From Klebsiella phage iPHaGe-KPN-11i, in sequence record OR637327.1: 64,000 bases of DNA, one strand, 5' to 3'. This document shows positions 1,871 to 40,239 of the stretch, in pieces. A program made the translations under genes and the position numbers. The first letter of the stretch is position 1; each line of letters starts with the position of its first letter. The notes beneath the pieces are model-generated. The model was given only the letters and a program-made list of their open reading frames with translations. It was not told the origin of the DNA and did no database searches.

Positions 1871-1899
1871 CCTTTTGTCCAATTCGTTTCGATGTGTGT

Positions 1900-1928
1900 A
1901 ATATACAAAAACCCCTCACATAATGCAA
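1900..1928 (-). promoter_or_regulatory. PeSL-like element (minus strand) TTGCAT-N17-TATATT in a hairpin, followed by the TCGAAACGAA leader
   Basis: Minus strand: AAAAACCCCTTGCATTATGTGAGGGGTTTTTGTATATTACACACATCGAAACGAA. Confidence 0.55.
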
Positions 1929-1948
1929 GGGGTTTTTGAAAAATTTAA

Positions 1949-2146
1949 TCAACTGGCGAAAATTTCTTCGAGAAACCAGACAGTAGATTTGTTGTTTTTT
2001 ACTCGCGTAAGCTCTAACTGATTGTCTTTAAAGGCTTCTTCGACATCAACCATAGTAACAACGTGCTTTTCGTTGGTGATGTGATTATGAAGATAGTAAC
2101 GCCGGATTTCCGGCGTTGTCAGTAAGGTAAATTCGCGTTCTAGCAT
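1949..2146 (-). CDS. hypothetical protein (65 aa)
   Basis: ORF directly downstream of gp46 on the same strand, overlapping it by 7 nt. Confidence 0.4.
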   Translation of the reverse strand: MLEREFTLLTTPEIRRYYLHNHITNEKHVVTMVDVEEAFKDNQLELTRVKNNKSTVWFLEEIFAS

Positions 2147-3831
2147 TTTCGGATCTCCATCTTCGAGAAGCGCCCCAATTTAGCCATGACGATATGACGA
2201 TCGAAATCACCAGGGTCTAAATCGTTGTGGCTAATCACCATGATATTACCATCAATACCATTCAGAACAGCCCCTACAGCAAACGCACCTTCCTTATCGA
2301 GAGCGTTATCAAAAACTTCGTCCAGAATCAGCAGAGACAGATCCACGCCTGATACTTTACTTGTCACGTCACGCCATGTGAACAGAATAGACAAGTTGAT
2401 GCGAGCGCGTTCGCCTTGACTGAATGACGCATAACTGAAATCATCGCGCCCCAGTGATTTGATCGATTCGTTGAACTCGTCATCTAAAGTGAACTGATAA
2501 TCCGCACCCAACAGATCCAGATAATATGCTATCTGTTTGTTGAAGTACGGAATATAGCGCTTAACAATGCTGGCCTTAACGCCGGAATCTTTCAACATAT
2601 CAGTAACAATACCACGAATGTATTTTTCCTTGACGTAGCCTTGTCGTTTTTCGTTCAGTTCTGCTTCCTGCTGTTGCAACTGCTTCACGGGTTCTTCATC
2701 AATGACTACTTCCGCGCTTGCCTGTTCCATGATCGCCTGTGCTCGTTTAGCGTTGGCAACTTCGTTTTGCAGTGTACCTTTCAGGGCTTCATATTTGGTT
2801 TTCAGGGCATTGAGTGCGCGTTGCTGTTGAAGCAAGTCATTCATGATCCCTTGTAACTCGTCTTGTTTGGTTTTGATCAGGGTTAAACGCTGTGTACCCG
2901 CTTTGATGTTCTCTGCGATCTCCGCCATACGCTCAGGAGTGGGTTTAATCGCTTGCTTACAGGCCGGACACTCACCGCCTTTCTGATACATCACCTCCAG
3001 CTTTTTAAACTGTTCTACAGTCATTGAAAGCCGCGAATAACCATCACGGAGTTTGTTGATATCTTCCGTCCGGTCTTCTCCAGCGATCACCGATTCCGCA
3101 ATCTCCGCTTGCAACTGCATAAGCTGTGCTTTGATGTTCTTTGCGGTTTCTACGTGACTATCGTAGATCTCTTTGTATCGGGCGTTGTTCTGGTTCGCTT
3201 TCGCTCGCTGTTCGTCAATGAAGCGCTGATGTGTTGCGATCTGCTGCTGGATGTGATTACCCTGCATTGAGAGCGTATCCAACTGCTGATTAACACCGCG
3301 AATGTATGACTTGTTCAGCTTATCCATTTCACTGATGACGGACAGAGACAGCAAATCTTCAACCAGTTTCCGGCGTTCTGGGGTTTTCAGTTCCATGAAT
3401 GGGGTGTAACCCGCTGTACCCAGAACGATAACCTGTTTGAAGCCCACAAGGTTGATGTTCAGCATAGATTCAAGCTGTGCCTGATAATCACCTGCTGCGG
3501 AGTCTTCCGGCAACTTCTCACCGTTCTTCCAGATCTCGAACACCTTCGGCTTTTGTCCGCGCACCACTTTGTACGAGTCTTTCCCGTATTCGATTTCCAG
3601 TTCAACCAGGCATTTCTTTTTGTTGACGCTGTTCACCAACTGCCCGACTTTTAGATCGCGGAATGACTTACCGAACAGGGCATAGGTTAACGCCTCGATC
3701 AGTGTCGATTTACCGCCACCGTTTTTCCCCGTGATCAGGGTTTTCTTTGCTGTATCAAATTCCAGTTCGATCGGGGTATTCCCGACCGACAGAATATTTT
3801 GATACTTAATTTTTTTGAAGTTTAGTTTCAT
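2140..3831 (-). CDS. 46: recombination endonuclease subunit gp46 (Rad50/SbcC-like ATPase)
   Basis: N-terminal Walker A GKNGGGKST, long coiled-coil middle, CxxC zinc hook (GGECPACKQ), C-terminal LLILDEVFDNALD. Length of 563 aa matches T4 gp46. Confidence 0.93.
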   Translation of the reverse strand: MKLNFKKIKYQNILSVGNTPIELEFDTAKKTLITGKNGGGKSTLIEALTYALFGKSFRDLKVGQLVNSVNKKKCLVELEIEYGKDSYKVVRGQKPKVFEIWKNGEKLPEDSAAGDYQAQLESMLNINLVGFKQVIVLGTAGYTPFMELKTPERRKLVEDLLSLSVISEMDKLNKSYIRGVNQQLDTLSMQGNHIQQQIATHQRFIDEQRAKANQNNARYKEIYDSHVETAKNIKAQLMQLQAEIAESVIAGEDRTEDINKLRDGYSRLSMTVEQFKKLEVMYQKGGECPACKQAIKPTPERMAEIAENIKAGTQRLTLIKTKQDELQGIMNDLLQQQRALNALKTKYEALKGTLQNEVANAKRAQAIMEQASAEVVIDEEPVKQLQQQEAELNEKRQGYVKEKYIRGIVTDMLKDSGVKASIVKRYIPYFNKQIAYYLDLLGADYQFTLDDEFNESIKSLGRDDFSYASFSQGERARINLSILFTWRDVTSKVSGVDLSLLILDEVFDNALDKEGAFAVGAVLNGIDGNIMVISHNDLDPGDFDRHIVMAKLGRFSKMEIRKC

Positions 3832-4096
3832 TTAAAATCCGTTCACATAATTCAGTGATCATTTGAACAACTGATGAATCAATACTATATGATAGCGTAT
3901 CATCTTCCAGTGTATCAAGCATGAAGATTGACCATGTTCTTGATGAATGCCATGCACCCTTCATGATGGTCAAACAAACTGCGCTGGTTTCCCCTGCTTC
4001 GTCGGATGTGGAAATGATGTGCTTCATTCCCAACATACGCAACAGGTGAGAATATCGGGGGTTCGCCCCGAAATATTCATCATAACGGCTATGCAC
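3806..4096 (-). CDS. hypothetical protein (96 aa) between 47 and 46
   Basis: ORF overlapping the gp47 stop and the gp46 start on the same strand. No recognisable motif. Confidence 0.35.
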   Translation of the reverse strand: MHSRYDEYFGANPRYSHLLRMLGMKHIISTSDEAGETSAVCLTIMKGAWHSSRTWSIFMLDTLEDDTLSYSIDSSVVQMITELCERILNETKLQKN

Positions 4097-5108
4097 TTGA
4101 CACCTCCGCGTATAGTTCGCTAATCAGCTTATTCACTTCCTCTTTTTCATCGTCGGTGATCTGCATGTTGGCGATATACTCAGTGATAAGCCCACGAACG
4201 GTTTTGATTTCAAAGTCGGTATCGACATCTGAATCTGTTTTAACTTTGTCTATGATGTTGATTTCATAGGCAATTTCTTCGATTTTGGTTTGGAACTTTG
4301 CAAGCCCCTGATCAATTTCACTAACAATCAGACGCACCGCGCAGTTGCGGAACTGTTCAAGATCAACATCTTTCTGTGCTGGATACATGATCCGGCGATG
4401 GTGGCACACAGGGTTAGCGATGAAAGTCAATTCAGGCTTGCCCGTAAACACATAGAAACCGCGTGTTTCGTCTTCGTCGTTCGCGCTCATAGTCAGAGGC
4501 GTACCGATGTAAAACACGTTGTCACCTTCGTTAGCGTGGTGATAGTGTCCAGAGTAAACACGATCGTACTTCTTCAAGAAATCAGGTTCCAGCCCATGAT
4601 CGGCTTTGCTGTTCTTGTAGAAATAGTAACCAGACAGTTCGAAGTGTCCCAAACAAAAGTTAGCTTTCGATTGTTTGATGTAGTCAAAAATACGCTGGCT
4701 GTTTTCCTGACAAATCCACGGGATTAGGTCAATCGAATTTCCGCCACCTAAATCAACCGTGGTCGGTTCGTCGATGACATTAAAGCATTCGTATTGACTT
4801 AGTATCTCGCGTGGCGCGTTGGGGCGTATTTTGTCCTTAAATTGGCAATCGTGGTTGCCGACAAGAACATCCAGAGTGATCCCCGCCTCAATCAGAAGAG
4901 GAACCAGCTTTTCACGAACAAAATTCATTGTCGTTTGTGTGGTTGCTTTTCGAACGTCGAAGAAGTCGCCAGCATGGAAGCCGCGCGTGATCCCGTGTTC
5001 TTTGCAATACTCGACGATCTGTTTGAATACCGCATACAGGTTTTCTTCGTTCCAGGGGTTATCCTGGCGAAGTCCGGCATGGGTATCCCCAATTAAAACA
5101 TAGTTCAT
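4089..5108 (-). CDS. 47: recombination nuclease subunit gp47 (Mre11/SbcD-like phosphoesterase)
   Basis: MNYVLIGDTHAG, GDFFD, GNHDC and GHxH phosphoesterase motifs. 339 aa, identical in length to T4 gp47, with clear colinear similarity. Confidence 0.93.
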   Translation of the reverse strand: MNYVLIGDTHAGLRQDNPWNEENLYAVFKQIVEYCKEHGITRGFHAGDFFDVRKATTQTTMNFVREKLVPLLIEAGITLDVLVGNHDCQFKDKIRPNAPREILSQYECFNVIDEPTTVDLGGGNSIDLIPWICQENSQRIFDYIKQSKANFCLGHFELSGYYFYKNSKADHGLEPDFLKKYDRVYSGHYHHANEGDNVFYIGTPLTMSANDEDETRGFYVFTGKPELTFIANPVCHHRRIMYPAQKDVDLEQFRNCAVRLIVSEIDQGLAKFQTKIEEIAYEINIIDKVKTDSDVDTDFEIKTVRGLITEYIANMQITDDEKEEVNKLISELYAEVSSA

Positions 5109-5133
5109 ATAAACCTCAAACCCCCGAAGGGGT

Positions 5134-5478
5134 TTATTTGCCGTATTTTTCAGAAGCCATGATGAACAGGTCTTTCAACTGCTGGTTCGAAGTGATCCAC
5201 ATCGTTTCAATCAGTTCATCGTTGTATGGTTGCTTGAGCATATCACGCATCTTTTTGATCGCGTATACGTACTGCTCTTTGTTACCTTCGAAGAGTGCGT
5301 TCTCTGCGTGTTTATGCAGTCGCTTCCATTCCGCCTTGTTCTTCCGCATGAACTTTTGCGCTTTGCGTAGGGCTTCCTGTTCAATGCGTGTACCCTTGAT
5401 GGAGTCCAGTTCTTCTTCACGAAGATCCAGCGCTGATTTTTGGTGTACTTCGTCGATTACTTCATGCTGCACGTTCAT
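5134..5478 (-). CDS. hypothetical protein (114 aa)
   Basis: ORF between 55 and 47, where T4 carries alpha-gt and small ORFs. Charged, helical composition. Confidence 0.45.
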   Translation of the reverse strand: MNVQHEVIDEVHQKSALDLREEELDSIKGTRIEQEALRKAQKFMRKNKAEWKRLHKHAENALFEGNKEQYVYAIKKMRDMLKQPYNDELIETMWITSNQQLKDLFIMASEKYGK

Positions 5479-5689
5479 AGTAAGTGATCTCCATGATCAT
5501 TGTTTCGGCGTTTATTACATAGTCCAGACGACCTTCTGTTATCTGGAAGTCTGGATCTCGTACATCTGTAGGGTCGATGATAATCGGAACCCCGACGTTC
5601 TGCAACTCTAATTTCACAAGGTAAGGAAGCAGATCAATTTCGTCGTTAGCATCTGCTAAAATTTTGTTCAGATCAATTTTAATTTTCAT
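5462..5689 (-). CDS. hypothetical protein (75 aa)
   Basis: ORF overlapping the gp55 stop by 4 nt (ATGA). Confidence 0.4.
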   Translation of the reverse strand: MKIKIDLNKILADANDEIDLLPYLVKLELQNVGVPIIIDPTDVRDPDFQITEGRLDYVINAETMIMEITYYERAA

Positions 5690-6201
5690 AGAAACATTTC
5701 CAATGTTGGCGATTCGTCCACAACCTCGATTTTATCTTTGGGTTTTTTCGCGGACTCTTCATACTGATTAAGTTTGTCATGGATATCCTGAATGAAAGTT
5801 TCATCGGCTATCGTGGTCATATCAGTATCATCGCTGTCATAGACATGTTCCAGGAAGTATTTGTATTTCTTCGCGTTCTCTTTCTTCTCGTAGAGAATAC
5901 GAGTTACAAACGCTTGCCAGCAAGCCTTGTTGATGTAACCGTAGACGTTTGTATATTTGGTTTCGTCAAAGTTATGAAGGCCGGAAATCGTTGCCGAAAT
6001 TCCATCGTCGATCATATCCATTTTCCAGTCTTCGGAATAACGGTTGAAGTTGTATCGACGTGCCAAACCGTGAGCAATGTTCATAATCGCAATACCGAGT
6101 TCATCCGGCATCTTACGATCACCAGTTTCACGGATTTGCTGTTTCCACTTACACATAACTGGATACAGCTTATCATTATCTGCATAAATCTTTGTAGTCA
6201 T
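5686..6201 (-). CDS. 55: late-transcription sigma factor gp55
   Basis: Start MTTKIYADN at 6201. [64 protein letters not shown] is near-colinear with T4 gp55 ([48 protein letters not shown]). Confidence 0.9.
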   Translation of the reverse strand: [171 protein letters not shown]

Positions 6202-6463
6202 TATATTCTCCAAATTGAATACATTCATTATAGCCGATTGAATCAGGTGTTTCAAACCTACTTCCAATCTATATTATTTAATAAAATCAGCGAGAAGCGC
6301 TTCCGTGAGCGAAGCGAAACGGATAGTTAAACTGGTTAAAAAGTAAACGAAAAACTACATTTTTCTCTATATATAAAATATAAAAATTTAAAAGTGTAGT
6401 TATGTAGTTAGACACTCACTTCGTTCGTGTCCTTCGCTTCGCTCAGATTTTTGAAATGATCTA

Positions 6464-6491
6464 TTGACTTTGAAAAAGTGATCACTATAAT
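6464..6491 (+). promoter_or_regulatory. sigma70-type early promoter TTGACT-N16-TATAAT driving the rnh to 32 operon
   Basis: TTGACT at 6464-6469 and TATAAT at 6486-6491, about 30 nt upstream of the rnh SD/ATG. Confidence 0.6.
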
Positions 6492-6522
6492 CAGTTTCAT
6501 TCAACAACAACGAGGTATTGAA

Positions 6523-7458: not shown

Positions 7459-7467
7459 GGTAACAAA

Positions 7468-7731: not shown

Positions 7732-7732
7732 T

Positions 7733-8646: not shown

Positions 8647-8649
8647 CAT

Positions 8650-9630: not shown

Positions 9631-9675
9631 TGCTTACGGGGGCGAAAGCCCCCAATTTGAAAGTTTGAGGTAGAT

Positions 9676-9960: not shown

Positions 9961-9980
9961 TTGAAAACTATAGGTTGAAT

Positions 9981-10646: not shown

Positions 10647-10666
10647 GATAAACAAAGTAGTACACA

Positions 10667-10688: not shown

Positions 10689-10710
10689 ATAATCAATTGA
10701 AGGTAATATT

Positions 10711-11709: not shown

Positions 11710-11711
11710 AA

Positions 11712-12287: not shown

Positions 12288-12656
12288 ATGAACATGCTCG
12301 AAATTAAACTGTCCAGCGATGACAGTTTCCTGAAAATTCGCGAAACGCTGACCCGCATCGGGATCGCAAATAACAAAAAGAAAATGTTGTGGCAGTCTTG
12401 CCACATCCTACAGAAACAAGGGCGTTATTTTATCGTACACTTCAAAGAACTGTTGAAGCTGGACGGTCGCCAGGTTGACATGACCGAAGATGACGAACTG
12501 CGCCGCAATAACATTGCGCGACTTCTGGAAGAGTGGGGTATGGTTTCCATCCTTACGCCGGATCTGAAATTCTCCGAAGAGAACAACTTCCGCGTACTGA
12601 CTCACGCACAAAAAGCTGAATGGACTTTGAAATACAAGTACCGGATCGGTCATTAA
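12288..12656 (+). CDS. regA: translational repressor RegA
   Basis: 122 aa. LKIRETLTRIGIANNKKKMLWQSCHILQKQGRYFIVHFKELLKLDGRQVDMTEDDELRRNNIARLLEEWG is near-identical in pattern to T4 RegA. Confidence 0.93.
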   Translation: MNMLEIKLSSDDSFLKIRETLTRIGIANNKKKMLWQSCHILQKQGRYFIVHFKELLKLDGRQVDMTEDDELRRNNIARLLEEWGMVSILTPDLKFSEENNFRVLTHAQKAEWTLKYKYRIGH

Positions 12657-12666
12657 TCAAAAGCCC

Positions 12667-12695
12667 TTGCAGAAATGCAGGGGCTTTGTTATATT
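12667..12695 (+). promoter_or_regulatory. PeSL-like element: promoter TTGCAG-N17-TATATT embedded in a terminator-like hairpin
   Basis: AAAGCCCTTGCAGAAATGCAGGGGCTTTGTTATATTGG; the -35 hexamer lies in the 5' arm of the stem. Confidence 0.55.
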
Positions 12696-12724
12696 GGTTG
12701 TACACCACTTGTGAGGACTAAATT

Positions 12725-13042
12725 ATGAAAATTCGTATTGAAGAAATCATCAAAGCTATTGAATCCGGCGATCACTTGATCAACCGTCTGCATAGCGAAG
12801 ACATCAAACTGTCTCTTACTTGCAATCTCTCTGATCTGCGCACCTACGCATACGCGCGGGATCACTTCCCTAAGTTCTATACTCGCATCATGGAAGAATA
12901 TACCGTGCTAGTTGAACAACTAAATCGGCCTGACACCCAACGCTATCACAAATTAGCGCAACGCTCGCTTGATCTGACCAAGCTGGCTGGGGTATCATTC
13001 CTGTCACGATTAAACACGGAGAAAGAAAACCGTAATGAATGA
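12725..13042 (+). CDS. hypothetical protein (105 aa) inserted between regA and 43
   Basis: ORF with SD, directly downstream of the PeSL; overlaps the gp43 start by 8 nt. T4 has no gene at this position. Confidence 0.5.
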   Translation: MKIRIEEIIKAIESGDHLINRLHSEDIKLSLTCNLSDLRTYAYARDHFPKFYTRIMEEYTVLVEQLNRPDTQRYHKLAQRSLDLTKLAGVSFLSRLNTEKENRNE

Positions 13043-17323: not shown

Positions 17324-18763
17324 ATGATCGTCGAAACAATATTTTCAAATCTGGTTTTTAATGGTACGTATTTTGTTCAGGCGTGGCCCCATTTACGCCG
17401 TGAATATTTCGAAGGGAACGCGCAGATTCTCTTTGATTTGATGGATAAGCACGTACAGGAATTCAACAGCATTCCTTCACAAACTGCTTTAGAAGTAGCT
17501 CTGGACAAAAAGAGCCTGAGTGATGTAGTCTACGAAGATACCAAAAAGATGATCCGCAGCATGAAAAATGCGCCGGAAGATCTGGAATGGTTGATGAAAG
17601 AAACGGAAACCTATTGTCGTGACAAGGCAATGTATCGCGCTCTGTCCCGTGCAATTGAGATCCAGGCGAATGCTGAAAAACCTGCTGGCGAACGCAACAA
17701 CAAAATCCCTGATGTTGGGGCAATCCCTGACATCATGGCGGAAGCGTTAGCGATTAGCTTCGATAGTTCGGTCGGTCATGATTACTTCGAAGACTATGAA
17801 AAACGCTGGATGCTTTACCAGTCCAAAGCGATGAAGATTCCGTTCAATATCCCGATCCTGAACGCCATTACCAAAGGCGGGGCGGAACGCGGTACACTGA
17901 ACATCTTAATGGCTGGTGTTAACGTTGGTAAATCTCTGGGGCTTTGTTCTCTCGCTGCTGATTACCTGCAATCAGGTAAAAACGTCCTGTATATCAGTAT
18001 GGAAATGGCTGAACACGTTTGTTCTAAACGTATTGACGCTAACCTGCTTGATGTTGCGATGGACGATATCGACAACGGGAACATTACCTATGCGGACTAT
18101 AAGAACCGTATGGAGCGCCTCAAACAGACGAAGGTCGGGCGTTTAATCGTTAAGCAATACCCAACAGCAGGGGCGAACGCGAACCACTTCAAAGCGCTGA
18201 TTAAAGAGCTTAAATTGAAGAAAAACTTCGTGCCTGATGTGATTATTGTTGACTACCTGGGGATCTGTGCTTCTACCCGTGTACGCGGGGCGGAAAATAC
18301 ATACATCCTGGTTAAAGCGATTGCCGAAGAACTTCGTGGTTTGGCTGTTGAAACAAATACCGTAATGTGGACTGGTGCGCAGACTACCCGCGCCGCGTGG
18401 GATGCTTCTGATATCAGCATGGGCGACGTTGCCGAATCTGCTGGTCTTCCGGCTACCGCTGACTTTATGTTAGCTGTGATCGAGACCGACGAGTTAGCTG
18501 ATCAGGGCTTGCAGTTGTTCAAGCAGATCAAATCCCGTTACGGCGATAAGAACCACTTTAACCACTTTAAACTCGAAGTGCGCAAGGGTAATCAACGCTG
18601 GATGGATACCGACAACAGCGATATCGGGTTCAAATCTGATTATAAAGGTCGTCAGATGCCGAAAACGCTTGAAGAAGCACAAGGTGCTATGGTAAAACAA
18701 GCTGAGACTAACCGAAGCAGTAAGTTAGCCGAAGTAGCAAACAGTACAGACATTCAATTTTAA
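17324..18763 (+). CDS. 41: replicative DNA helicase gp41 (DnaB-like)
   Basis: MIVETIFSNLVFNGTYF...LNILMAGVNVGKSLGLCSLAADYLQSGKNVLYISMEMAE...IIVDYLGIC is near-colinear with T4 gp41. Confidence 0.95.
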   Translation: MIVETIFSNLVFNGTYFVQAWPHLRREYFEGNAQILFDLMDKHVQEFNSIPSQTALEVALDKKSLSDVVYEDTKKMIRSMKNAPEDLEWLMKETETYCRDKAMYRALSRAIEIQANAEKPAGERNNKIPDVGAIPDIMAEALAISFDSSVGHDYFEDYEKRWMLYQSKAMKIPFNIPILNAITKGGAERGTLNILMAGVNVGKSLGLCSLAADYLQSGKNVLYISMEMAEHVCSKRIDANLLDVAMDDIDNGNITYADYKNRMERLKQTKVGRLIVKQYPTAGANANHFKALIKELKLKKNFVPDVIIVDYLGICASTRVRGAENTYILVKAIAEELRGLAVETNTVMWTGAQTTRAAWDASDISMGDVAESAGLPATADFMLAVIETDELADQGLQLFKQIKSRYGDKNHFNHFKLEVRKGNQRWMDTDNSDIGFKSDYKGRQMPKTLEEAQGAMVKQAETNRSSKLAEVANSTDIQF

Positions 18764-19019: not shown

Positions 19020-19047
19020 TTGACGGGAGTTCTGGTTGTGATAATAT
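19020..19047 (+). promoter_or_regulatory. putative early promoter TTGACG-N16-TAATAT with the -10 enclosed in a 7-bp-stem hairpin (CGGGAGT...ACTCCCG)
   Basis: TTGACG at 19020-19025, TAATAT at 19042-19047. Inverted repeat at 19024-19030 / 19049-19055. Followed by the ACGAAACGG...AGGAGAT leader. Confidence 0.4.
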
Positions 19048-19085
19048 GACTCCCGTAGACAACGAAACGGATTAGGAGATACCAA

Positions 19086-19340
19086 ATGAACTTACTGAAC
19101 AACCCATACGACGAAGTGATGAACCCAGAACTGGATTTCAGCGCGGGTTATTTCGATGCAGTAGTGAACAGCGTAGTAAACAGAGGTTTGCTGGTTGAAA
19201 TGCTGAAAAGTGGGAAAGCAGATGTTGAAGGTAGCGTTGATTTCCTCTGGGGCTTCCTCCCAATCGACCCAGAATTCAAACTCTGCTGTAACGAAGTTCA
19301 GGCAAAAAACGTTCTTCGGTATCTTATCAACAAAGCATAA
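19086..19340 (+). CDS. hypothetical protein (84 aa)
   Basis: ORF with SD AGGAGAT. A strong terminator follows at 19346-19369. Confidence 0.5.
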   Translation: MNLLNNPYDEVMNPELDFSAGYFDAVVNSVVNRGLLVEMLKSGKADVEGSVDFLWGFLPIDPEFKLCCNEVQAKNVLRYLINKA

Positions 19341-26595: not shown

Positions 26596-26624
26596 TTGCA
26601 TTCGTGCAGGGGCTTTGTTATTTT
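26596..26624 (+). promoter_or_regulatory. PeSL-like element TTGCAT-N17-TATTTT in a hairpin
   Basis: AAAAGCCCTTGCATTCGTGCAGGGGCTTTGTTATTTTG. Confidence 0.5.
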
Positions 26625-26653
26625 GTAGGGACTGAAACAAAAGAGGATAAAAC

Positions 26654-26797
26654 ATGTTTGGTGATTTGAAAGAAGGTTTGAACATTTTAATTGGATTCGC
26701 GATCATTGGTGTGATTGCTTGTGTGTCCGGCGCGGTGTGGTTGTCTTATCAGGCGATCGTGTGGTTGGGCGAATGGCTTCACATTCTGGCACAGTAA
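26654..26797 (+). CDS. small membrane protein (47 aa)
   Basis: Own translation MFGDLKEGLNILIGFAIIGVIACVSGAVWLSYQAIVWLGEWLHILAQ. SD AAGAGGA 6 nt upstream. Below the ORF-track cut-off. Confidence 0.45.
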   Translation: MFGDLKEGLNILIGFAIIGVIACVSGAVWLSYQAIVWLGEWLHILAQ

Positions 26798-27321: not shown

Positions 27322-27335
27322 TTTTAATAGCCTCT

Positions 27336-27364
27336 TGCAATGCAAGAGGCTTTTTTGTATATTG
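27336..27364 (+). promoter_or_regulatory. PeSL-like element TTGCAA-N17-TATATT in a hairpin
   Basis: AATAGCCTCTTGCAATGCAAGAGGCTTTTTTGTATATTG. Confidence 0.55.
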
Positions 27365-27388
27365 CGCACATACCAAAAGGAGGCAACT

Positions 27389-27874: not shown

Positions 27875-27883
27875 TTTGGGTAT

Positions 27884-27911
27884 TGACCCAAATTTCGATA
27901 TGCAGTATATT
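27884..27911 (+). promoter_or_regulatory. early promoter TTGACC-N16-TATATT followed by the TCGAAACGAAAC leader
   Basis: TTGACC at 27884-27889, TATATT at 27906-27911, leader motif at 27919-27930. Confidence 0.5.
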
Positions 27912-27948
27912 ACACACATCGAAACGAAACAGACAAAAGGAACGCATC

Positions 27949-28110
27949 ATGAAAAACTTAGAAGCCAAAGTAGTTAAAGTCCTGGTTAAGAACGGTTTCA
28001 ACGAAAACGACGCGGTAGCAATGGTTGAAAAGAATCTGAATGATGCGTTGAAAGTTAGACCAGAAGCAAAACCTGCTAAACTCGCAGAGGTGATTGTATG
28101 CATCATGTAA
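27949..28110 (+). CDS. hypothetical protein (53 aa)
   Basis: MKNLEAKVVKVLVKNGFNENDAVAMVEKNLNDALKVRPEAKPAKLAEVIVCIM. AAAAGGA SD. The ORF track's 27826 start lies upstream of the promoter. Confidence 0.45.
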   Translation: MKNLEAKVVKVLVKNGFNENDAVAMVEKNLNDALKVRPEAKPAKLAEVIVCIM

Positions 28111-28301: not shown

Positions 28302-28386
28302 CAAATAGCACTTTTTGCTAAAGACTTCACGGGATAGCTTTGATATAGTTATCCCATCGAAACGAAACAGACTTTAGGAGATTGCC

Positions 28387-28719
28387 ATGTATACTTTTGA
28401 CGAACTGAAAGCCGCAGCACAGCCTTTACTGGATGCGATGTTCAAAGCCCGTAACGGTGGCGCATTCGAAAACGAATTCTTTGAAACTGTTTTCGTTCTG
28501 GAAAAAGGCCGTAAGTATCATCGTATTGTGCAGGATACTCGCAACAAACAGACTGGTGAAATGTTCGATCAGCGTTCAGTTGCTGGTTTCCTGGACAATG
28601 ACGGCAATATCCTGAAAGCCGCAGGATGGAAAGCACCTGCTAAGGGTATTCGCGGTAATATCTTCAACAACCCAGAGAACGCGATCGACCGTAGCGGTTA
28701 CGTTCGCTATCTTCGCTAA
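28387..28719 (+). CDS. hypothetical protein (110 aa)
   Basis: Preceded by TATAGT inside a GGGATA/TATCCC hairpin and by the TCGAAACGAAAC leader. SD AGGAG. Confidence 0.5.
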   Translation: MYTFDELKAAAQPLLDAMFKARNGGAFENEFFETVFVLEKGRKYHRIVQDTRNKQTGEMFDQRSVAGFLDNDGNILKAAGWKAPAKGIRGNIFNNPENAIDRSGYVRYLR

Positions 28720-30907: not shown

Positions 30908-32797
30908 ATGAGTTTAGATTTCTTAATGGACGATAACGAGCCGCAGAAAGCACCAGAAGCCCCAGCAAAGGGCGCTAAGGTGGATGAATCATTCTGCTTG
31001 AGCGACCGCGATCATATTCGCAAACGTCCGAATATGTACGTGGGTTCAGTGAACAAAGAAGCCCATGAACGTTTTATCATGGGGCAATTCCGCAAAGTGG
31101 AATACGTGGAAGGGTTGGTGAAAATCATCAACGAAATCCTGGATAACTCCATCGACGAAGCGATCCGAACTGATTTCAAATATGCGAACAAAATCGAAGT
31201 GAAGATTGATCACAATCTGGTCACTATTTCGGACAACGGACGCGGTATTCCACAAGATGACGTGAGAACGCCAGAAGGGAAGATTGTTCCTAAACCTGTT
31301 GCAGCATGGACAATGGCTAAATCCGGTTCTAACTTCGATGACGAAAACCGCGTAACAATGGGGATGAACGGTGTAGGTTCTTTCCTGACAAACTGTTACA
31401 GCGCGATCTTTATCGGTGAGACATCCAACGGTAAACGCAAAGTCACGATCAACTGTACGGACGGGGCGCAGAACATGGATTACCGCACCAGCCCGACGAA
31501 GGAGCAAGGGACAACCGTTAAGTTTACCCCTGACTTCTCTATCTTCGGCGTGGACGGTATCGACGAAGAGACAAAGGAAGTCATCAAAGATCGCCTTATG
31601 GCGCTTGCAGTGGCTTTCCCTGCCGTTAAATTCACATATAACGGTGATATCCTCCCGAACAAATTCGCGATGTATGGCGCGATGTACGGTGATAAAACGA
31701 TTACCCAGACAAACAACAAAATCAGTTTCATCCTGGCGAGCACAGAAGACGGTTTCAAACAGAAATCCTTCGTTAACGGATTGGATACGAAAAACGGCGG
31801 TGTTCATGTTGACACCATGATCGACGGTATCTATTCCGAACTCGAACCGATGATCAAGAAAACACACGCTATCGAGATCCCAAAAGCCCGTGTAAAAGAA
31901 TGCTTGACTTTGGTTGTGTTTTTGCATAACTTCAATGCACCAGCTTTTGATAGTCAGACGAAAGAAAAACTGACTAACACCGCTGGGGAGTTCAACAACC
32001 ACGCCGGACTGAACTATAAAAAGATCGCGAAACAGATTATGGATACTTCTGAAATAATCACTCCGATCATTGAGTCCGCTCTGATTCGCAAACAGGCCGC
32101 AGAAGCCGCAGCCATTACCAAAGCGAAGAAGAAAGCTAAAAAGGCGAAGGTTGCAAAACATGTTCCGGCATCAGGGATCGACACTGACGGGGTAGAAACC
32201 ACTTTGTTTCTGACCGAGGGCGATTCCGCCGTGGGGCAGTTTATCGAGTGCAGAAACGAAGAGACACAAGGCGCATTTCCGCTACGTGGTAAACCGTTGA
32301 ACACCTGGGGAATGAGTAACTTAGAAGTGCTCAAAAACAAAGAATTGTCTGAACTCATGGCGATCCTGAATCTCCATCCAGGCGACTCTTCCGAAATGAC
32401 TTACGACAACATCGGGATCATGGTCGATGCTGACGTTGACGGGGGAGATATTCTCACCCTACTGATTGCGTTCTTTAGCCGCTGGCCTGAGTTGTTCGAG
32501 AAGAAAAAGATCCGTTATATCCGCACACCGATTATCATTGCGAAAGTCGGTAAAGATGAAAAATGGTTCTACTCCCTTGAAGATTTCGCACCGTTCCGCG
32601 ATAAGGCGAAAGAGGTACGATATATCAAAGGTCTGGGTTCTTTACGTAAAGAAGATTACGATCGGGTGTTGGGCGACCAGTTAAAATACGATACAATCGT
32701 ACTGGGCGACGAATACAAAGACGTTCTGGAACTGTGTTTCGGTGATGAATCCGATCCGCGTAAAGACTGGGTGAACGGAAACATAAATTTTCGGTGA
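30908..32797 (+). CDS. 39: DNA topoisomerase II large subunit (GyrB-like ATPase + TOPRIM); gp39 and gp60 equivalents fused
   Basis: GHKL motifs ILDNSIDEA, ISDNGRGIP, GMNGVGS. TOPRIM LFLTEGDSA...DADVDGGDI. 630 aa equals T4 gp39 + gp60 without the gene-60 split. ATG at 30908 after SD AGAGG. Confidence 0.9.
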   Translation: MSLDFLMDDNEPQKAPEAPAKGAKVDESFCLSDRDHIRKRPNMYVGSVNKEAHERFIMGQFRKVEYVEGLVKIINEILDNSIDEAIRTDFKYANKIEVKIDHNLVTISDNGRGIPQDDVRTPEGKIVPKPVAAWTMAKSGSNFDDENRVTMGMNGVGSFLTNCYSAIFIGETSNGKRKVTINCTDGAQNMDYRTSPTKEQGTTVKFTPDFSIFGVDGIDEETKEVIKDRLMALAVAFPAVKFTYNGDILPNKFAMYGAMYGDKTITQTNNKISFILASTEDGFKQKSFVNGLDTKNGGVHVDTMIDGIYSELEPMIKKTHAIEIPKARVKECLTLVVFLHNFNAPAFDSQTKEKLTNTAGEFNNHAGLNYKKIAKQIMDTSEIITPIIESALIRKQAAEAAAITKAKKKAKKAKVAKHVPASGIDTDGVETTLFLTEGDSAVGQFIECRNEETQGAFPLRGKPLNTWGMSNLEVLKNKELSELMAILNLHPGDSSEMTYDNIGIMVDADVDGGDILTLLIAFFSRWPELFEKKKIRYIRTPIIIAKVGKDEKWFYSLEDFAPFRDKAKEVRYIKGLGSLRKEDYDRVLGDQLKYDTIVLGDEYKDVLELCFGDESDPRKDWVNGNINFR

Positions 32798-32801
32798 AAT
32801 A

Positions 32802-34088: not shown

Positions 34089-34103
34089 TTTACAAAAAGC
34101 CTC

Positions 34104-34133
34104 TTGCATCGCGGGAGGCTTTTTTGCTATATT
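34104..34133 (+). promoter_or_regulatory. PeSL-like element TTGCAT-N18-TATATT in a hairpin
   Basis: AAAAGCCTCTTGCATCGCGGGAGGCTTTTTTGCTATATTG. Confidence 0.55.
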
Positions 34134-34160
34134 GTCCTCACTGATTGGGGAGGATATAAA

Positions 34161-34700
34161 ATGTTCAAAACTCGTAGCGATATGGAAATAACCATTTGGG
34201 CCAAAAGCATCATGGCGAAACATGGCTTATCCCACTGGTCTTTCAAAATCAACGGACGTTTCAAAAGGACTTTAGGTCAGTGTTCATACACTCGTAAGTT
34301 GATTGAGTTACGTCGCGATCATGTTAAGGAAGACACATACGAGAACGTTTTAGATACTCTCATGCACGAAATTGCTCATGCTCTGACCGAAGGGGCTGGA
34401 CACGGGATCGTATGGCAGCGTAAAGCTATCGAGTTGGGCGCACAGCCTACGCCAACCAAAAGCCGTGTTCGCGAGCAATCAGTGATTCGGGAAAGCAAAA
34501 AGGATATGTATGCTTTGTTCCTGAAAACTCCGAACGGCGAAGTTTATCAGTGCAATATGCCTGAAAAGATGTACAATGAGATCCAGGAAGGTAAACGCAA
34601 CCTTGCGAACATCTACATTTCAGGAAACAAAAGAGCAACCAAAGGGCGCTTAGTAGCGCGTAAATTGACACCAGAACAATATGCAGAGGCTATTCAATGA
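34161..34700 (+). CDS. putative Zn-metalloprotease, HExxH (SprT/WLM-like), 179 aa
   Basis: LDTLMHEIAHAL with a downstream acidic/His region. Start at 34161 after SD GGGGAGGA. Confidence 0.4.
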   Translation: MFKTRSDMEITIWAKSIMAKHGLSHWSFKINGRFKRTLGQCSYTRKLIELRRDHVKEDTYENVLDTLMHEIAHALTEGAGHGIVWQRKAIELGAQPTPTKSRVREQSVIRESKKDMYALFLKTPNGEVYQCNMPEKMYNEIQEGKRNLANIYISGNKRATKGRLVARKLTPEQYAEAIQ

Positions 34701-34933
34701 AACCATATGATGCACCAAAAACGGGAAAATATATTACAATAGCTGTGCTGTGTACTATTGCAATATGTTTTGTAACTGCTATCGTGGTCGGTATCATGGA
34801 TATGAAAGACCGCGAACGTCAGAAGCAACAGGTTTACGAATACCTTGACCGGATGTGTACACCTGTTGAATATGGGCTTGATCAAAAGCCTGTGAAATAT
34901 TCATGCGATAACATCATCTTTAACACCAAGTGA
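34697..34933 (+). CDS. small membrane protein (78 aa) upstream of rIIA
   Basis: TM segment YITIAVLCTIAICFVTAIVVGIM. ATGA overlap with the previous gene. Confidence 0.5.
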   Translation: MKPYDAPKTGKYITIAVLCTIAICFVTAIVVGIMDMKDRERQKQQVYEYLDRMCTPVEYGLDQKPVKYSCDNIIFNTK

Positions 34934-34943
34934 GATATAAACA

Positions 34944-37193: not shown

Positions 37194-38092
37194 TGAGAAA
37201 CGTTAAGATCCTTGACGATGTACAGAAGAAAGCAGTCTATGAGGGCTTTCTGACCAGCGCAAACAAAACCGCACTGGCTAAACAATTTGGTGTAAGCGTC
37301 CGAACCATCGGGCGCGTTATTACCGAGCAACACGCTAAGTATAATGTGGAAGCATCTAAACCACTTCCGCAAACAGATGTCAAATCTAAAATGATTGGTT
37401 CTGAATCGTTCATTACTCTGGTACTGGACGGCAAGATCATCACAGCGGATTCGTCACACCCTAACTTCGAAAAAGCACACGCTTTGATGGTTAAGGGCGA
37501 CATCGAGGGAGTTGCTACCCTGTTGGACACAACGCAAGCGTTGAAGATTTACAGCAAAGGCAACATTAAAATCATCGGGCATAAAGTCCTGTACAAAGAT
37601 ATCGTGTTTGACAGCGGTATCACGCAACGTATCGTTCGTGAAATGTACAATGATCGCCCTTACGAGCACCTGGTGAACTTCTTCGAGAAGTTGATGGAAA
37701 ACCCTTCACGCGATGCTGTGTATCAGCTTTACGGGTTCATGGTGCATAACGATATCGAACTGGCAGATGATGGAGATTTCTACGCGTGGAAACGTGTTCG
37801 TGAAGACTTCCGCGATCTGGCTTCTGGTAAGTTCGATAACTCCCCTGGTGTTGTGGTTGAAATGCCACGTAACCAGGTAGACGAGAATAAAAACCGAACC
37901 TGTTCATGCGGTTTGCATGTTGCCGCAAAATCGTACCTTCCTCACTATGGCGGAGGACGTGGGCGAGTCATTCAGGTTAAGGTTAATCCTCGTGATGTTG
38001 TAGCAATCCCGACAGATTACGATAACGCTAAGATGCGCGTATGTCGTTATCAGGTGATGCGTGATGTAACTGTGGGATTCAGTCACTACTAA
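37193..38092 (+). CDS. rIIB: rIIB
   Basis: FGVSVRTIGRVI..., LMENPSRDAVYQLYGFMVHNDIELADDGDFYAWKRV, FDNSPGVVVEMPRNQVDENKNRTCSCGLHVAAKSYL, RVIQVKVNPRDVVAIPTDYDNAKMRVCRYQV are colinear with T4 rIIB. ATG at 37193 overlaps the rIIA stop (TAATG). Confidence 0.9.
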   Translation: MRNVKILDDVQKKAVYEGFLTSANKTALAKQFGVSVRTIGRVITEQHAKYNVEASKPLPQTDVKSKMIGSESFITLVLDGKIITADSSHPNFEKAHALMVKGDIEGVATLLDTTQALKIYSKGNIKIIGHKVLYKDIVFDSGITQRIVREMYNDRPYEHLVNFFEKLMENPSRDAVYQLYGFMVHNDIELADDGDFYAWKRVREDFRDLASGKFDNSPGVVVEMPRNQVDENKNRTCSCGLHVAAKSYLPHYGGGRGRVIQVKVNPRDVVAIPTDYDNAKMRVCRYQVMRDVTVGFSHY

Positions 38093-38137
38093 CCCCAAAA
38101 CAGCGCCTGGAGCGATTCAGGCGCAGAGGATTCGATT

Positions 38138-38551
38138 ATGAAATTCCTACGAAGCATTCCTGACTACTGGCAGAACTTGAGCGGGGCAGAAACAGCCATT
38201 AAAACCGCTAAAGAACTCTGGAACGGCGGTAAAGTTACCGCTGGACGTACAGAAGACGGCGAACAGACATACTTCAAAAAACCTTACGGTATTATTGCAG
38301 CAGCCCTTGCATTTAATCTGGGTTATGTTATGCTGGTACTCGCAACGGTTCAGAAGTGGGTAGAGATACCGATGAAATGGATCGGGACGTTAACGATTCG
38401 CTTAGTTCGTTTACTGTTCGGATCGACGATCTTGATTTTGTCATGCCCTATCTTCTTGCTGGCACTGACTATGAATATGAAAACTGGTGTAAACACCAAA
38501 TTCGGAAATTTACTGGTAACGAAAAATGAAAAGAATTCTGACAAGGCTTGA
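38138..38551 (+). CDS. membrane protein (137 aa, about 3 TM)
   Basis: Hydrophobic segments IIAAALAFNLGYVMLVLATV and LLFGSTILILSCPIFLLALT. Confidence 0.5.
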   Translation: MKFLRSIPDYWQNLSGAETAIKTAKELWNGGKVTAGRTEDGEQTYFKKPYGIIAAALAFNLGYVMLVLATVQKWVEIPMKWIGTLTIRLVRLLFGSTILILSCPIFLLALTMNMKTGVNTKFGNLLVTKNEKNSDKA

Positions 38552-38963
38552 CATCCACAAATATGCTGTTAAGATAGGTGACATGAAGCGCGGTGACTTC
38601 ACCAAGTTCGAAGGGGTTGACCTGAAAGAACACGGCTTCTACCTGGTAGTTGATGATAAAACGGGTAAGGTAGTATTCCGATTCTACGTAGCCCCAAATC
38701 AACGCCGTAAGACTGGCGCAAACCGTACTCTGTTACGTATCAAACGCCGCGAACATGAACCATCAGCGATGGTTGCTTTACTGGATAGTGCTTCTCTATA
38801 CTTCGTTGCACACGATAAGATTAAAAACCTCTTTGGTTTCTCAAATCTTACTGGTACAATAGCGGAAAGCGCGATTCAGATGCGGTTCGGGGATGGTGAG
38901 AACTACACTGAATACAACCGCGCACTGAATGATCTGTTTGACTTTGAATTCCAACCATACTAA
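38526..38963 (+). CDS. hypothetical protein (145 aa)
   Basis: ORF overlapping the previous gene by 26 nt. Confidence 0.45.
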   Translation: MKRILTRLDIHKYAVKIGDMKRGDFTKFEGVDLKEHGFYLVVDDKTGKVVFRFYVAPNQRRKTGANRTLLRIKRREHEPSAMVALLDSASLYFVAHDKIKNLFGFSNLTGTIAESAIQMRFGDGENYTEYNRALNDLFDFEFQPY

Positions 38964-38971
38964 TTGAGATA

Positions 38972-39226
38972 ATGAATATGAAACTGTTTTCCAAAATCCG
39001 TTCTGTAGACGAAATCGTAGCAACTTTTGACAAAACCCTGACCGAACTCGAAGCGCGTATTGCTCACGATAACGAACAGGTCGCACAGGTAGCAGCAGAC
39101 CGCAAAGCAGCGGAAGAAGAACATCAGCGTAAGCTGGCTGAACTGGCTACCAAAGAAAGCGATCATACCGCAAGCGCAACACGCGCCGGACGTATCGCGG
39201 ATAAAATCCGCAAACTGCTGGATTAA
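38972..39226 (+). CDS. coiled-coil protein (84 aa)
   Basis: Heptad-rich LTELEARIAHDNEQVAQVAADRKAAEEEHQRKLAELA. Confidence 0.45.
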   Translation: MNMKLFSKIRSVDEIVATFDKTLTELEARIAHDNEQVAQVAADRKAAEEEHQRKLAELATKESDHTASATRAGRIADKIRKLLD

Positions 39227-39270
39227 TTATCTAAAATGGGGCTGAAAAGCCCCAATAAGGAAAATAATAT

Positions 39271-39501
39271 ATGTTTGTAATTTCTTCGTACTATGATTCA
39301 CGTCAACGAGTATCGTTGTCTTCTATTTCCAAAGCACCAAAAGATATAGATGACTTCGGATTGCTTAACTTTGTCAAAAAAGAAATCGACCGCGTTGTTC
39401 CAGAAAAATACAGAATTGTTAAAGGATCTGATAGCTTAACTATCGTAAAACTGTATGGCGAAGTCAGTATTCAACATCATGTGCCATTATATCCTCGATG
39501 A
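39271..39501 (+). CDS. hypothetical protein (76 aa)
   Basis: ORF with SD AAGGAAA. Confidence 0.45.
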   Translation: MFVISSYYDSRQRVSLSSISKAPKDIDDFGLLNFVKKEIDRVVPEKYRIVKGSDSLTIVKLYGEVSIQHHVPLYPR

Positions 39502-39519
39502 ACAACCTGGTAGCGAAAC

Positions 39520-39939
39520 ATGCCTGGATTAACCGCGCTTCTACTCACCGCGATCGCAAGCGAGCACTTAAAGAAGCAAAACGTAAACAGAAACATAAAG
39601 GTAAGTGTGATGAAAACCGCTTTGATTATTCTTGAGGAAATCCCAGAAAACACGGGGTTGTATCTCGTTGAAGCCGACGAAGATATCATTGAAATCCTCA
39701 AAACCGCTCACGGGCATTATGTGAACGGATGCAACAACACCCCAGAACAGGAACATGCTGTCAATATCGTTAACCTCATGTTAGGGCCGCGTACAGATGA
39801 CAACCTGGCATGGGCGAGTGAATCCAACATTCCTCATGAGTATGTCGGGATGTATTATCAGTGCAACGTTGACGATAAAGCGCCACTGATACCGGAAAAA
39901 CAGATCGATTTAGTAGTTCGAACAGGTTTCTTCTTATGA
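39520..39939 (+). CDS. hypothetical protein (139 aa; alternative start at 39610 gives 109 aa)
   Basis: No SD at 39520. The ATG at 39610 has an AAGG 9 nt upstream. Confidence 0.4.
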   Translation: MPGLTALLLTAIASEHLKKQNVNRNIKVSVMKTALIILEEIPENTGLYLVEADEDIIEILKTAHGHYVNGCNNTPEQEHAVNIVNLMLGPRTDDNLAWASESNIPHEYVGMYYQCNVDDKAPLIPEKQIDLVVRTGFFL

Positions 39940-40163
39940 GTTCACAAATTCTGTTCAGCAAAGAAGATCCATTAGGCACAGATTCATCGGTGCAGCGCTT
40001 ATTCTGGCACATGGATTATACAAAAAATCGTTGTCGTAACCCAAACAATACATGGGGAAGCAACGAAGACATTGATAAAGCAAAAATTTATCCTCGCGGA
40101 AAAGCATACTGGAAAATTTTTGATATCCATCTTCATAAAGTTATGAAAGATTCGAACGCATGA
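39936..40163 (+). CDS. hypothetical protein (75 aa)
   Basis: ATGA overlap with the previous gene. Confidence 0.4.
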   Translation: MSSQILFSKEDPLGTDSSVQRLFWHMDYTKNRCRNPNNTWGSNEDIDKAKIYPRGKAYWKIFDIHLHKVMKDSNA

Positions 40164-40173
40164 TAAAAAGCCC

Positions 40174-40203
40174 TTGACTTCGGTTGAGGGCTTTTGTTAT
40201 ATT
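40174..40203 (+). promoter_or_regulatory. PeSL-like element TTGACT-N18-TATATT in a hairpin, followed by the TCGAAACGAAAC leader
   Basis: AAAAGCCCTTGACTTCGGTTGAGGGCTTTTGTTATATTGG; leader at 40211-40222. Confidence 0.55.
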
Positions 40204-40239
40204 GGCTTTGTCGAAACGAAACCACTAAGGAGATTCACC

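Follow-up and report, generated by a model that had tools for sequence, protein, structure and literature searches.

Promoter-early stem-loop (PeSL) cassettes were described for the T4 relatives RB49 and phi1 (Arbiol et al., 2010; PMC2839356). They are multi-copy intergenic cassettes of ~70-100 nt placed before small genes of unknown function, and they combine a strong sigma-70-type promoter, a G/C stem-loop over the -35 or -10 that doubles as a terminator, and a Shine-Dalgarno (SD) sequence with ATG at the 3' end. The sections of that paper that describe the cassettes name the promoter, the stem-loop, an AT-rich region and the SD, with no mention there of a conserved transcript start; they also place the crossovers of PeSL mini-circles in the interval from the -10 to the SD or ATG. 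Nolan et al., in their section on promoters (PMC1524935), likewise make no mention of a conserved transcript-start sequence. We analyzed an 11-nt non-coding motif, CGAAACGAAAC, and its first six bases, CGAAAC, which follow the -10 of several promoters in a 64,000-nucleotide stretch (the window) of Klebsiella phage iPHaGe-KPN-11i (OR637327.1). By its architecture, the repeated non-coding promoter cassette that carries the motif is of the PeSL type. Our preferred interpretation, to which we give slightly less than an even chance, is that the motif is an initial transcribed sequence (ITS) favoring productive initiation or promoter escape by host RNA polymerase. The conserved transcript start of such an ITS-bearing early-promoter or PeSL cassette is apparently undescribed in the literature found, and a full-text search for the 11-mer returned irrelevant matches only.

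Two other groups of described elements are close to this one. The early promoters A1 and A3 of phage T7 start at the A of a CAT located 7-8 nt past the -10 and have a purine-rich early transcribed region, and T5 N25 is the model for ITS-controlled promoter escape; no ITS consensus has been described for the T7 and T5 promoters, whereas here many promoters and phage families share one word of 6-11 nt at a single register. The T4 RegB sites resemble the present leaders in that short early leaders of a T4 relative carry a GGAG SD. They differ in that the conserved element here lies upstream of GGAG and is independent of it, the RegB consensus is not matched, and phages that lack T4-type early regulation have the motif as well.

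Register and conservation of the motif

The window is, by nucleotide identity, a T4-like phage of the RB43 group (Pseudotevenvirus). A 4-kb piece of it is 99.6% identical to Enterobacter phage ENT3 and 99.5% identical to Cronobacter phage vB_CsaM_SemperBestia, which is classified in Straboviridae, Pseudotevenvirus (the RB43/RB16 group of T4 relatives). The annotated SemperBestia genome and, as a second whole genome, that of Klebsiella phage p4515 (Slopekvirus, ~82% identical) were used for whole-genome counts and orthologue comparison.

The exact 11-mer is present three times in the window (27920, 28358 and 40212), against 0.15 copies expected in Markov shuffles, 100 of which provided the expected values for the window. 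As a word, CGAAAC is not enriched in the window (58 copies vs 55.8 +/- 7.7 in shuffles). Six of these 58 copies lie exactly 8 nt after a -10 hexamer, defined as TAnnnT with a match to TATAAT at 4 or more of the 6 positions; the shuffles average 0.54 at this spacing, with a maximum of 2 in 100, and each of the other spacings in the real sequence has 0-3 copies. With the total at chance level and an excess at spacing 8, it is position and not frequency that makes the motif stand out. There are 13 spacing-8 sites in the whole genome of SemperBestia and 10 in that of p4515. For the 14-mer CATCGAAACGAAAC, a sample of 115 occurrences in IMG/VR gave a -10 exactly 5 nt upstream in 75, compared with 0-6 at other distances.

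Since transcription usually starts 7 nt past the -10, the predicted start is the A of the conserved CAT and the predicted RNA is pppAUCGAAACGAAAC, with CGAAAC at +3 to +8. In the window leaders, the ATG follows the predicted start by 23-31 nt and the motif by 21-29 nt; in a prophage the corresponding distance is ~260 nt. The position of the motif is thus fixed to the -10 and predicted start and free of the start codon.

Seven promoter-linked CGAAAC sites were found in the window, six at spacing 8 and a seventh (19063) at 15 nt. Two of them (56532-56527 and 60454-60449, both on the minus strand) were added by a listing of CGAAAC combined with a -35/-10 scan to the five sites of an earlier note on this DNA, all of which are present, and a one-base variant, TGAAAC, occurs at 26633. 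The note had held that five unrelated genes begin with nearly the same 5' untranslated region ending in AGGAGAT. Its central observation is borne out: the conservation is in non-coding sequence just after the -10, at the predicted transcript starts of unrelated genes. The seven downstream products gave a best E value of 0.17 in an all-against-all blastp and belong to different Pfam/PHROG families, mostly of unassigned function, in keeping with the claim that the coding sequences are not homologous. A common 5' untranslated region describes the copies at spacing 8 and does not extend to the site at 19063, which has a different distance to the -10 and belongs to a different cassette family. AGGAGAT is found at only three of the seven sites, where it is the SD, and does not form part of the conserved leader.

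Comparison of copies and orthologues indicates what is kept at these sites. Copies within a single genome differ in the five bases that separate the -10 from CAT (acaca, tatcc, atcca, ggctt, gcaca, agggg and others), whereas CGAAAC is constant. The gene for the 266-aa protein has ggctttgt-CGAAAC-GAAAC-cacta in Pseudotevenvirus and agccatat-CGAAAC-GAGAT-acctt in Slopekvirus. At the 110-aa gene, the upstream half has been exchanged between the two genera (box type vs hairpin/-35 type) and tatcc has become actta, with CAT-CGAAACGAAAC kept. Two different modules before a common leader would fit a swap within the cassette; neither a junction nor a circle was seen. Two further Pseudotevenvirus/Slopekvirus orthologues have single changes (AGAAAC and TGAAAC), and a relative with 61% protein identity has CAAAACGAATC in the same position. 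An IMG/VR search with the 266-aa protein yielded too few close relatives for an orthologue series. That CGAAAC persists where the upstream module and the bases on either side of it are replaced speaks for constraint on the first 6-8 bases of the transcript, and part of this pattern could come from recombination inside the cassette.

The cassettes share one order of parts: an upstream module; a -10, often an extended -10 TATATT; five variable bases; CAT; CGAAAC(GAAAC); an A-rich, U-poor and unstructured spacer; SD; and ATG. The upstream module takes three forms. In the hairpin form (-10 at 1905, 40198 and 60468), the -35 lies within a G/C stem-loop with a T run that leads into an extended -10 TGT-TATATT, and this stem-loop is a predicted terminator of the preceding gene. 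The plain form (27906 and 56546) has the -35 TTGACC, and the box form (28344) has an upstream box and no -35. Four hairpin promoters lack the motif (12690, 27358 and 34128) or have TGAAAC in its place (26619).

Several features of PeSL cassettes recur here. Sigma-70-like pairs of -35 and -10 separated by 16-18 nt are present in cassettes A, B, C, E, F and G (Table 1), and D has an extended -10. Inverted repeats of the CCCC/GGGG type with a T run surround the -35 in A, E and G and at 12653, 26582, 27322 and 34090; no stem-loop was found in cassettes C, D and F. The 3' ends carry SD and ATG, the products match PHROGs of unknown function, and the related genome has ~11 hairpin cassettes. The RB49-group genomes even have an identical acacaCAT-CGAAACGAAAC leader. 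In contrast to PeSL, the motif is also found in stem-loop-free cassettes (27906, 28344 and 56546) and outside the T4-like phages. The earlier note had regarded a larger duplicated block with homologous coding sequence as fatal to its proposal; a repeated block of ~70-90 nt (hairpin or box, -10, leader and SD) does exist, and no homologous coding sequence lies within it.

Table 1. Promoter cassettes, motif copies and upstream box in the window. Minus-strand elements are given in reading direction where the higher position comes first.
Feature	Span	Strand	Upstream module and -10	Sequence after -10	Motif	SD and ATG	Downstream product
Cassette A	1859..1937	-	Terminator-like hairpin aaaaaCCCCttgcattatgtgaGGGGtttttg with -35 TTGCAT (1928-1923); -10 TATATT (1905-1900)	acacaCAT; predicted start A 1893	CGAAACGAATT, 1881..1891 (1891-1881); +3 to +13 of predicted transcript	Leader; ATG 1870 or 1861	ORF ending at 1064; CapR-like and HNH-endonuclease-like matches
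Hairpin-family promoter	12653..12732	+	-35 TTGCAG; -10 TATATT (12690-12695)	ggttgtacACCACTtgtgagg	None
Cassette B (other family)	19020..19088	+	-35 TTGACG (19020-19025); inverted repeat gggagt...actccc around -10 TAATAT (19042-19047)	GTAGACAA	ACGAAACGG, 19062-19070; CGAAAC 19063-19068, 15 nt past -10	GGAG 19075-19078; ATG 19086	
Sister hairpin cassette	26596..26655	+	-35 TTGCAT (26596-26601); -10 TATTTT (26619-26624)	gtagggac	Variant TGAAAC, 26633-26638	SD; ATG	
Hairpin-family promoter	27322..27386	+	-35 TTGCAA; -10 TATATT (27358-27363)	gcgcaCAT, then ACCAAAAGGAGG	None
Cassette C	27883..27951	+	-35 TTGACC (27883-27888); -10 TATATT (27906-27911)	acacaCAT; predicted start A 27918	CGAAACGAAAC, 27920..27930	ATG 27949	53 aa
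Upstream box	28305..28322	+	ATAGCACTTTTTGCTAAA, matching marbox consensus GCAHWWWWTGYYAAA; 21 nt before -10; centre ~-41; no -35 hexamer				
Cassette D	28341..28389	+	Extended -10 TGaTATAGT (-10 28344-28349)	tatccCAT; predicted start A 28356	CGAAACGAAAC, 28358..28368	GGAG 28377-28380; ATG 28387	110 aa (DUF7717)
Hairpin-family promoter	34090..34162	+	-35 TTGCAT; -10 TATATT (34128-34133)	gtcctcacTGATTGGGGAGG	None
Cassette E	40165..40242	+	Hairpin aaaaaGCCCttgacttcggttgaGGGCttttgt with -35 TTGACT (40174-40179); -10 TATATT (40198-40203)	ggctttGT	CGAAACGAAAC, 40212..40222	GGAG; ATG 40240	266 aa
Cassette F	56506..56568	-	-35 TTGACC (56568-56563); -10 TAAGAT (56546-56541)	atccaCAT; predicted start A 56534	CGAAAC 56532-56527	GAGG; ATG 56508	53 aa
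Cassette G	60431..60500	-	Hairpin aaaaaGCCCCttgcgaaagtgaGGGGCttttgt with -35 TTGCGA (60491-60486); -10 TATATT (60468-60463)	gcacatAA	CGAAAC 60454-60449	GAGG; ATG 60433	160 aa

The family of cassette B has TTGAC(G/A), an unusual hairpin spanning the -10 TAATAT, and a conserved GTAGACAA at the predicted transcript start. Its paralogues in SemperBestia, at 18010, 86909, 96773 and 146985, have GTAGACAA with or without CGAAAC.

Two other repeats were observed in the window. A 77-nt direct repeat (1431-1507 and 1626-1702; 73% identity) with palindromic cores TGTCCTTTTGGACAA lies in the minus-strand CapR/HNH-endonuclease-like open reading frame (ORF) at 1064-1870. A repeat of ~50 nt ending in CTTCTTAGGCGT occurs in five copies in 50174-51018, within a 1219-aa minus-strand ORF (48889-52548); because the homologous gene of the annotated relative encodes the proximal subunit of the long tail fibre, the repeat is probably an internal protein repeat.

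Occurrence of the module in other phages

A scan of IMG/VR for TATATT-N8-CGAAACGAAAC returned 97 stretches, nearly all of which have an N8 ending in CAT, though this was not required. The stretches come from RB43-group phages, Slopekvirus, prophage-like contigs, lambdoid promoters and T1-like phages. The T1-like phages (Drexlerviridae) with the module include Shigella phage Sd1 and the JLBYU16 group. In Krischvirus (the RB49/phi1 group) it has the form TTGACA-17-cATAAT-acacaCAT-CGAAACGAAAC-acacttAGGAG, before the phi1p125 homologue. When the 38-nt module was compared by blastn with 50,697 phage records, 481 of them matched, including Vibrio phages, one of which has TATATTacacaCAT-CAAAACGAAC. 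As these phage families share only the host transcription machinery, the motif looks like part of a promoter read by host RNA polymerase, rather than a phage-specific RNA signal.

The prophage-like contigs form a large family of ~45-50 kb in which the promoter lies between operator-like palindromes of several specificities. The transcript opens with the motif and continues in a 260-nt leader before a Bro-N antirepressor-like ORF; this leader is strongly folded (z -2.1) with its 5' 13 nt unpaired. In other lambdoid promoters, a boxA-like CGCTCTTTGAACAA and a small hairpin come after the motif and together resemble a nutL site. The ~260-nt leader, conserved between a repressor-controlled promoter and the Bro-N antirepressor-like gene, was seen in IMGVR_UViG_2671180982_000002 (5412-5695) and at about 60 related loci of lambdoid prophages from Enterobacter and Escherichia, joined in different loci to operators ATAC-N5-GTAT, TTAGC-N5-GCTAA and TGCG...CGCA. 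It has no match in Rfam and is possibly a regulatory RNA not yet described.

Host chromosomes do not use the exact module. A scan of bacteria, with one genome per species, gave only 20 matches; these were prophage copies, phage DNA present as contamination and a small number of isolated promoter-like sites in unrelated bacteria. The isolated sites, in metagenome-assembled genomes of Hoeflea, Clostridiales, Cellvibrionaceae and Acetatifactor, have a TTGAC-type -35, a 17-18 nt spacer, TATA(A/T)T, N5, CAT-CGAAACGAAAC, SD and ATG, and are too few for a decision between convergence and mobile elements. Promoter cassettes of the present phage group were seen, identical or nearly so, at three loci of NZ_JBHSCL010000010.1 (178,077 bp, labelled Flagellimonas marina), a contig whose length matches a whole Pseudotevenvirus genome, and on a 244-bp contig of Streptomyces sp. 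P17. Both contigs are almost certainly contaminating phage DNA in the assemblies.

Upstream box and its likeness to a marbox

The box upstream of cassette D, GCACTTTTTGCTAAA, fits every position of the marbox consensus GCAHWWWWTGYYAAA (PMC6900184) and is the sole zero-mismatch match in the window. It agrees with the marbox of E. coli marO, ATGCCACGTTTTGCTAAATC, read from the K-12 genome, at 15 of 20 positions. A second marbox consensus, AYnGCACnnWnnRYYAAAYn, is likewise matched at every position. Other readings of the box were set aside. For sigma-54, the spacing of TAGCAC-N3-TTGC is wrong and the distance to the start too great, and for a MotA box the distance to the -10 is 21 nt instead of about 12 (both by inspection). 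A dimeric palindromic operator (TAGCA-N5-TGCTA) was dropped after the asymmetric marbox consensus had fitted every position.

Copies of the box number 4 in SemperBestia, 6 in Slopekvirus and 13 in the 48-kb T1-like Shigella phage Sd1, and more than 120 IMG/VR stretches have it. In the form ATAGCAC-nnn-TTGCTAAA, it is the 21-nt intergenic repeat aaATAGCACnnnTTGnTAAAA of T1-like phages. A 2024 paper on phage TLS left the function of this repeat open and found only three ordinary sigma-70 promoters in TLS (PMC11447400); marboxes and the downstream motif are not mentioned in it.

The geometry of the box resembles that of class II promoters of MarA, SoxS and Rob (arrangement, PMC6900184; criteria, PMC12052159), which likewise have a forward box 20-21 nt before the -10, centred near -40, and no -35. 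The box at 28305-28322 is in forward orientation, centred within -36 to -55, and covers the -35 position. In 97 phage promoters selected by the box, its distance to the -10 peaks at 20 nt (52 of the 97), a spacing at which the forward-oriented 15-nt marbox spans about -47 to -33, with no -35 hexamer. Many of the box promoters continue with CAT-CGAAAC; most motif-bearing promoters in the window are without the box. The consensus match and this geometry suggest that the box promoters depend on host Rob, MarA, SoxS or RamA. When the window and three other genomes, related or T1-like, were searched by tblastn with an approximate MarA sequence, no homologue was detected, so the reader of the box would be a host protein. 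No paper linking marboxes to phage promoters was found in our literature search.

A broader proposal joins both elements. CAT-CGAAAC(GAAAC) would be the dedicated downstream element of a portable promoter module exchanged by unrelated Enterobacterales and Vibrio phages (T1-like phages; the RB43, RB49 and Slopekvirus relatives of T4; lambdoid prophages). Its full form would couple a class II marbox, the -10 and the transcript start, and the genes behind it would be switched on by host RNA polymerase together with Rob, MarA, SoxS or RamA. We consider this proposal rather doubtful.

Candidate roles of the conserved transcript start

If the motif is an ITS, it would belong to a modular sigma-70 promoter cassette, of the PeSL type in this T4-like phage. 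Host RNA polymerase would begin the RNA with the A of CAT, which places the motif at +3 to +13, and the purine-rich, YG-poor bases at +5 to +7 would be retained as an aid to initiation and escape at very strong promoters. A single-stranded 5' end ahead of the ribosome-binding site would be a by-product, and the cassette copies would have been spread and homogenised through recombination between cassettes. This option, one of four functions offered in the earlier note, is plausible and is favored over the others by the fixed register, the modular context, the unstructured RNA, the retention of the motif despite diverging flanks, its presence across families, the ~260-nt distance to the ORF in lambdoid phages and the likeness to T7 A1 and A3. 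The ITS modulates the output of escape-limited promoters (PMC5961368; PMC12464699). It can alter promoter output more than 10-fold, productive yield correlates with purine content, and YG at +5/+6 slows escape while GA and GG favor it (PMC5961368); bases +5 to +7 of the motif are AAA. Among 55 non-redundant promoters selected by the box, with the transcribed region not used, 41 have A at +1 and 10 have CGAAAC at +3, and positions +3 to +16 are 43% A and 14% U.

In the T7 record (NC_001604, 400-800), the annotated A1 start is the A in ccA-TCGAGAGGG (ccA-UCGAGAGGG) and the annotated A3 start is the A in cA-TGAAACGACAG (cA-UGAAACGACAG); A3 starts cAUGAAACGA. With A1 starting AUCGAGAGGG and A3 starting AUGAAACGACAG, either AUCGA or GAAACGA is common with AUCGAAACGAAAC; the CAT start, AUCGA and GAAACGA are thus shared with two of the strongest known coliphage early promoters. 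A further likeness is to sigma-70-dependent pause elements, which, as at lambda PR', lie within the first ~12 transcribed bases of a phage promoter. The lambda PR' element is AACGAT, which AACGAA at +6 to +11 of the motif resembles. The motif differs in having no T at the last position of the -10-like hexamer and no Q-type antiterminator context.

Several points weigh against an ITS. The start at the A of CAT is a prediction from spacing and from T7 A1 and A3, and the effect on escape is one that we infer; no transcriptome of RB43-group or Slopekvirus phages was found in the literature. The motif has CG steps at +3/+4 and +8/+9, and YG, CG included, slows escape in some promoter contexts (PMC5961368). 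Cassette E starts gtCGAAAC, without CAT, and cassette G starts aaCGAAAC. The exact hexamer is present in only ~1/3 of the strong promoters in the genome and in 18% of those selected by the box, which makes it a favored variant and not a requirement. The exact-pattern scans imposed their pattern beforehand, so they cannot show its invariance. Finally, the neighboring acacaCAT is also common to very different phages, which looks more like block descent or transfer than selection on 11 bases. The CG steps, the minority use and the shared acaca keep the ITS slightly below an even chance, and they leave as a second, less likely reading a motif with no function of its own.

Such a motif would be a passenger or homology patch in mobile PeSL-type cassettes, conserved via recent descent, gene conversion and recombination, with exchange within and between co-infecting phages and crossovers between the -10 and SD. 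The repeated unit does exceed the motif, as the hairpin, TATATT, acacacat, motif, agacaaaaggaac and atcATG are common to several copies, and the RB43, RB49, T1-like and Vibrio phage groups share an identical 25-nt block, TATATTacacacatCGAAACGAAAC. Orthologous sites with a swapped upstream module and the same leader are what junctions inside the cassette would give, and the crossovers of mini-circles reported in the PeSL sections of Arbiol et al. (PMC2839356), between the -10 and ATG/SD, fall in the same interval. However, simple block inheritance would keep the five bases from the -10 to CAT as well as CGAAAC, and among copies and orthologues the former differ and the latter does not. T7 A3 has its cAUGAAACGA in an otherwise unrelated promoter, and a patch of 11-25 nt offers little length for homologous recombination. 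The register to the -10 is also fixed across very different upstream halves, which points to a constraint tied to initiation.

Roles in the RNA are less probable again. That an enterobacterial host factor binds the single-stranded 5'-terminal AUCGAAACGAAAC and sets mRNA lifetime or ribosome loading, with RppH or RNase E (5'-end-dependent decay), ribosomal protein S1, Hfq or another RNA-binding protein as candidates, would suit a motif that is always at the extreme 5' end and unpaired, even in the strongly folded lambdoid leader, and that occurs in phages with only host factors in common. We regard it as quite improbable: the known recognition sequences of RppH, RNase E, S1 and Hfq do not match, no regular ARN repeat frame for Hfq is seen by inspection, and searches of Rfam and of the literature brought up nothing for the motif. 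Moreover, a 5' end left unpaired would make the RNA open to 5'-end-dependent decay instead of protecting it. Structured RNA was rejected as well, since the seven leaders have minimum free energies of 0 to -3.6 kcal/mol and all seven fold less than their shuffles (z > 0); at the gathering threshold, Rfam had no match in the window or six related loci, tRNAs excepted.

A translational enhancer, in which an A/C-rich unstructured stretch just 5' of the SD aids 30S binding, has a small chance of being correct. The motif ends 5-15 nt before the SD in T4-like and T1-like phages, and the leaders, of 23-31 nt, are U-poor and unstructured. It is nevertheless the -10, and neither the SD nor the ATG, to which the register is tied, and in lambdoid prophages the identical start is followed by a 260-nt non-coding leader or by a nut site; with a distance to the ATG that varies in the window and is irrelevant in the lambdoids, a strict translational enhancer is an unlikely source of the fixed register. 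Complementarity to 16S rRNA, as in an epsilon or downstream-box enhancer, is no better than chance (best duplex with E. coli rrsB -5.9 kcal/mol vs a mean of -9.55 for shuffled motifs), and that form of enhancer is not supported.

Least probable of all, and barely credible, is a site for a phage-encoded regulator, either the RegB endoribonuclease at the GGAG of the leader, as the earlier note had suggested, or a repressor at +3 to +13 that shuts early promoters. T4 RegB does cut the GGAG of early leaders (PMC3014915), GGAG is the SD after the motif in three of the seven leaders, and a position just downstream of the start is a classical one for a repressor. The other four leaders lack GGAG, and in the three that have it the following ATTGCC, ATTCACC and ATACCAA fit the RegB consensus GG*AGRAYARAA (PMC3014915) poorly. 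The motif is common in T1-like and lambdoid phages and found in Krischvirus and Vibrio phages, whose gene sets are very different, and its tandem GAAAC GAAAC, spaced by 5 nt, has no dyad symmetry. SemperBestia gp146 (31802-32449, minus strand) is the one protein of this relative annotated as a putative endoribonuclease, but its Pfam match is an SLT transglycosylase domain; the annotation is doubtful and gives no support to the presence of RegB in this group of phages.

Descriptions of sigma-70 promoters normally stop at +1, and the motif is a candidate natural test case for the sequence rules of the ITS and promoter escape, as well as a possible ready-made part for designs of strong synthetic promoters with 5' untranslated regions. 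The PeSL idea of mobile regulatory cassettes may reach beyond RB49-type phages, with the transcript start included. If the portable marbox module is true, it would also explain the 21-nt repeat of T1-like phages, the question left open in the 2024 paper. The marbox link, if confirmed, would explain the seeming lack of ordinary promoters in T1-like genomes and would link the expression of phage genes to stress regulators of the host, which control antibiotic resistance as well.

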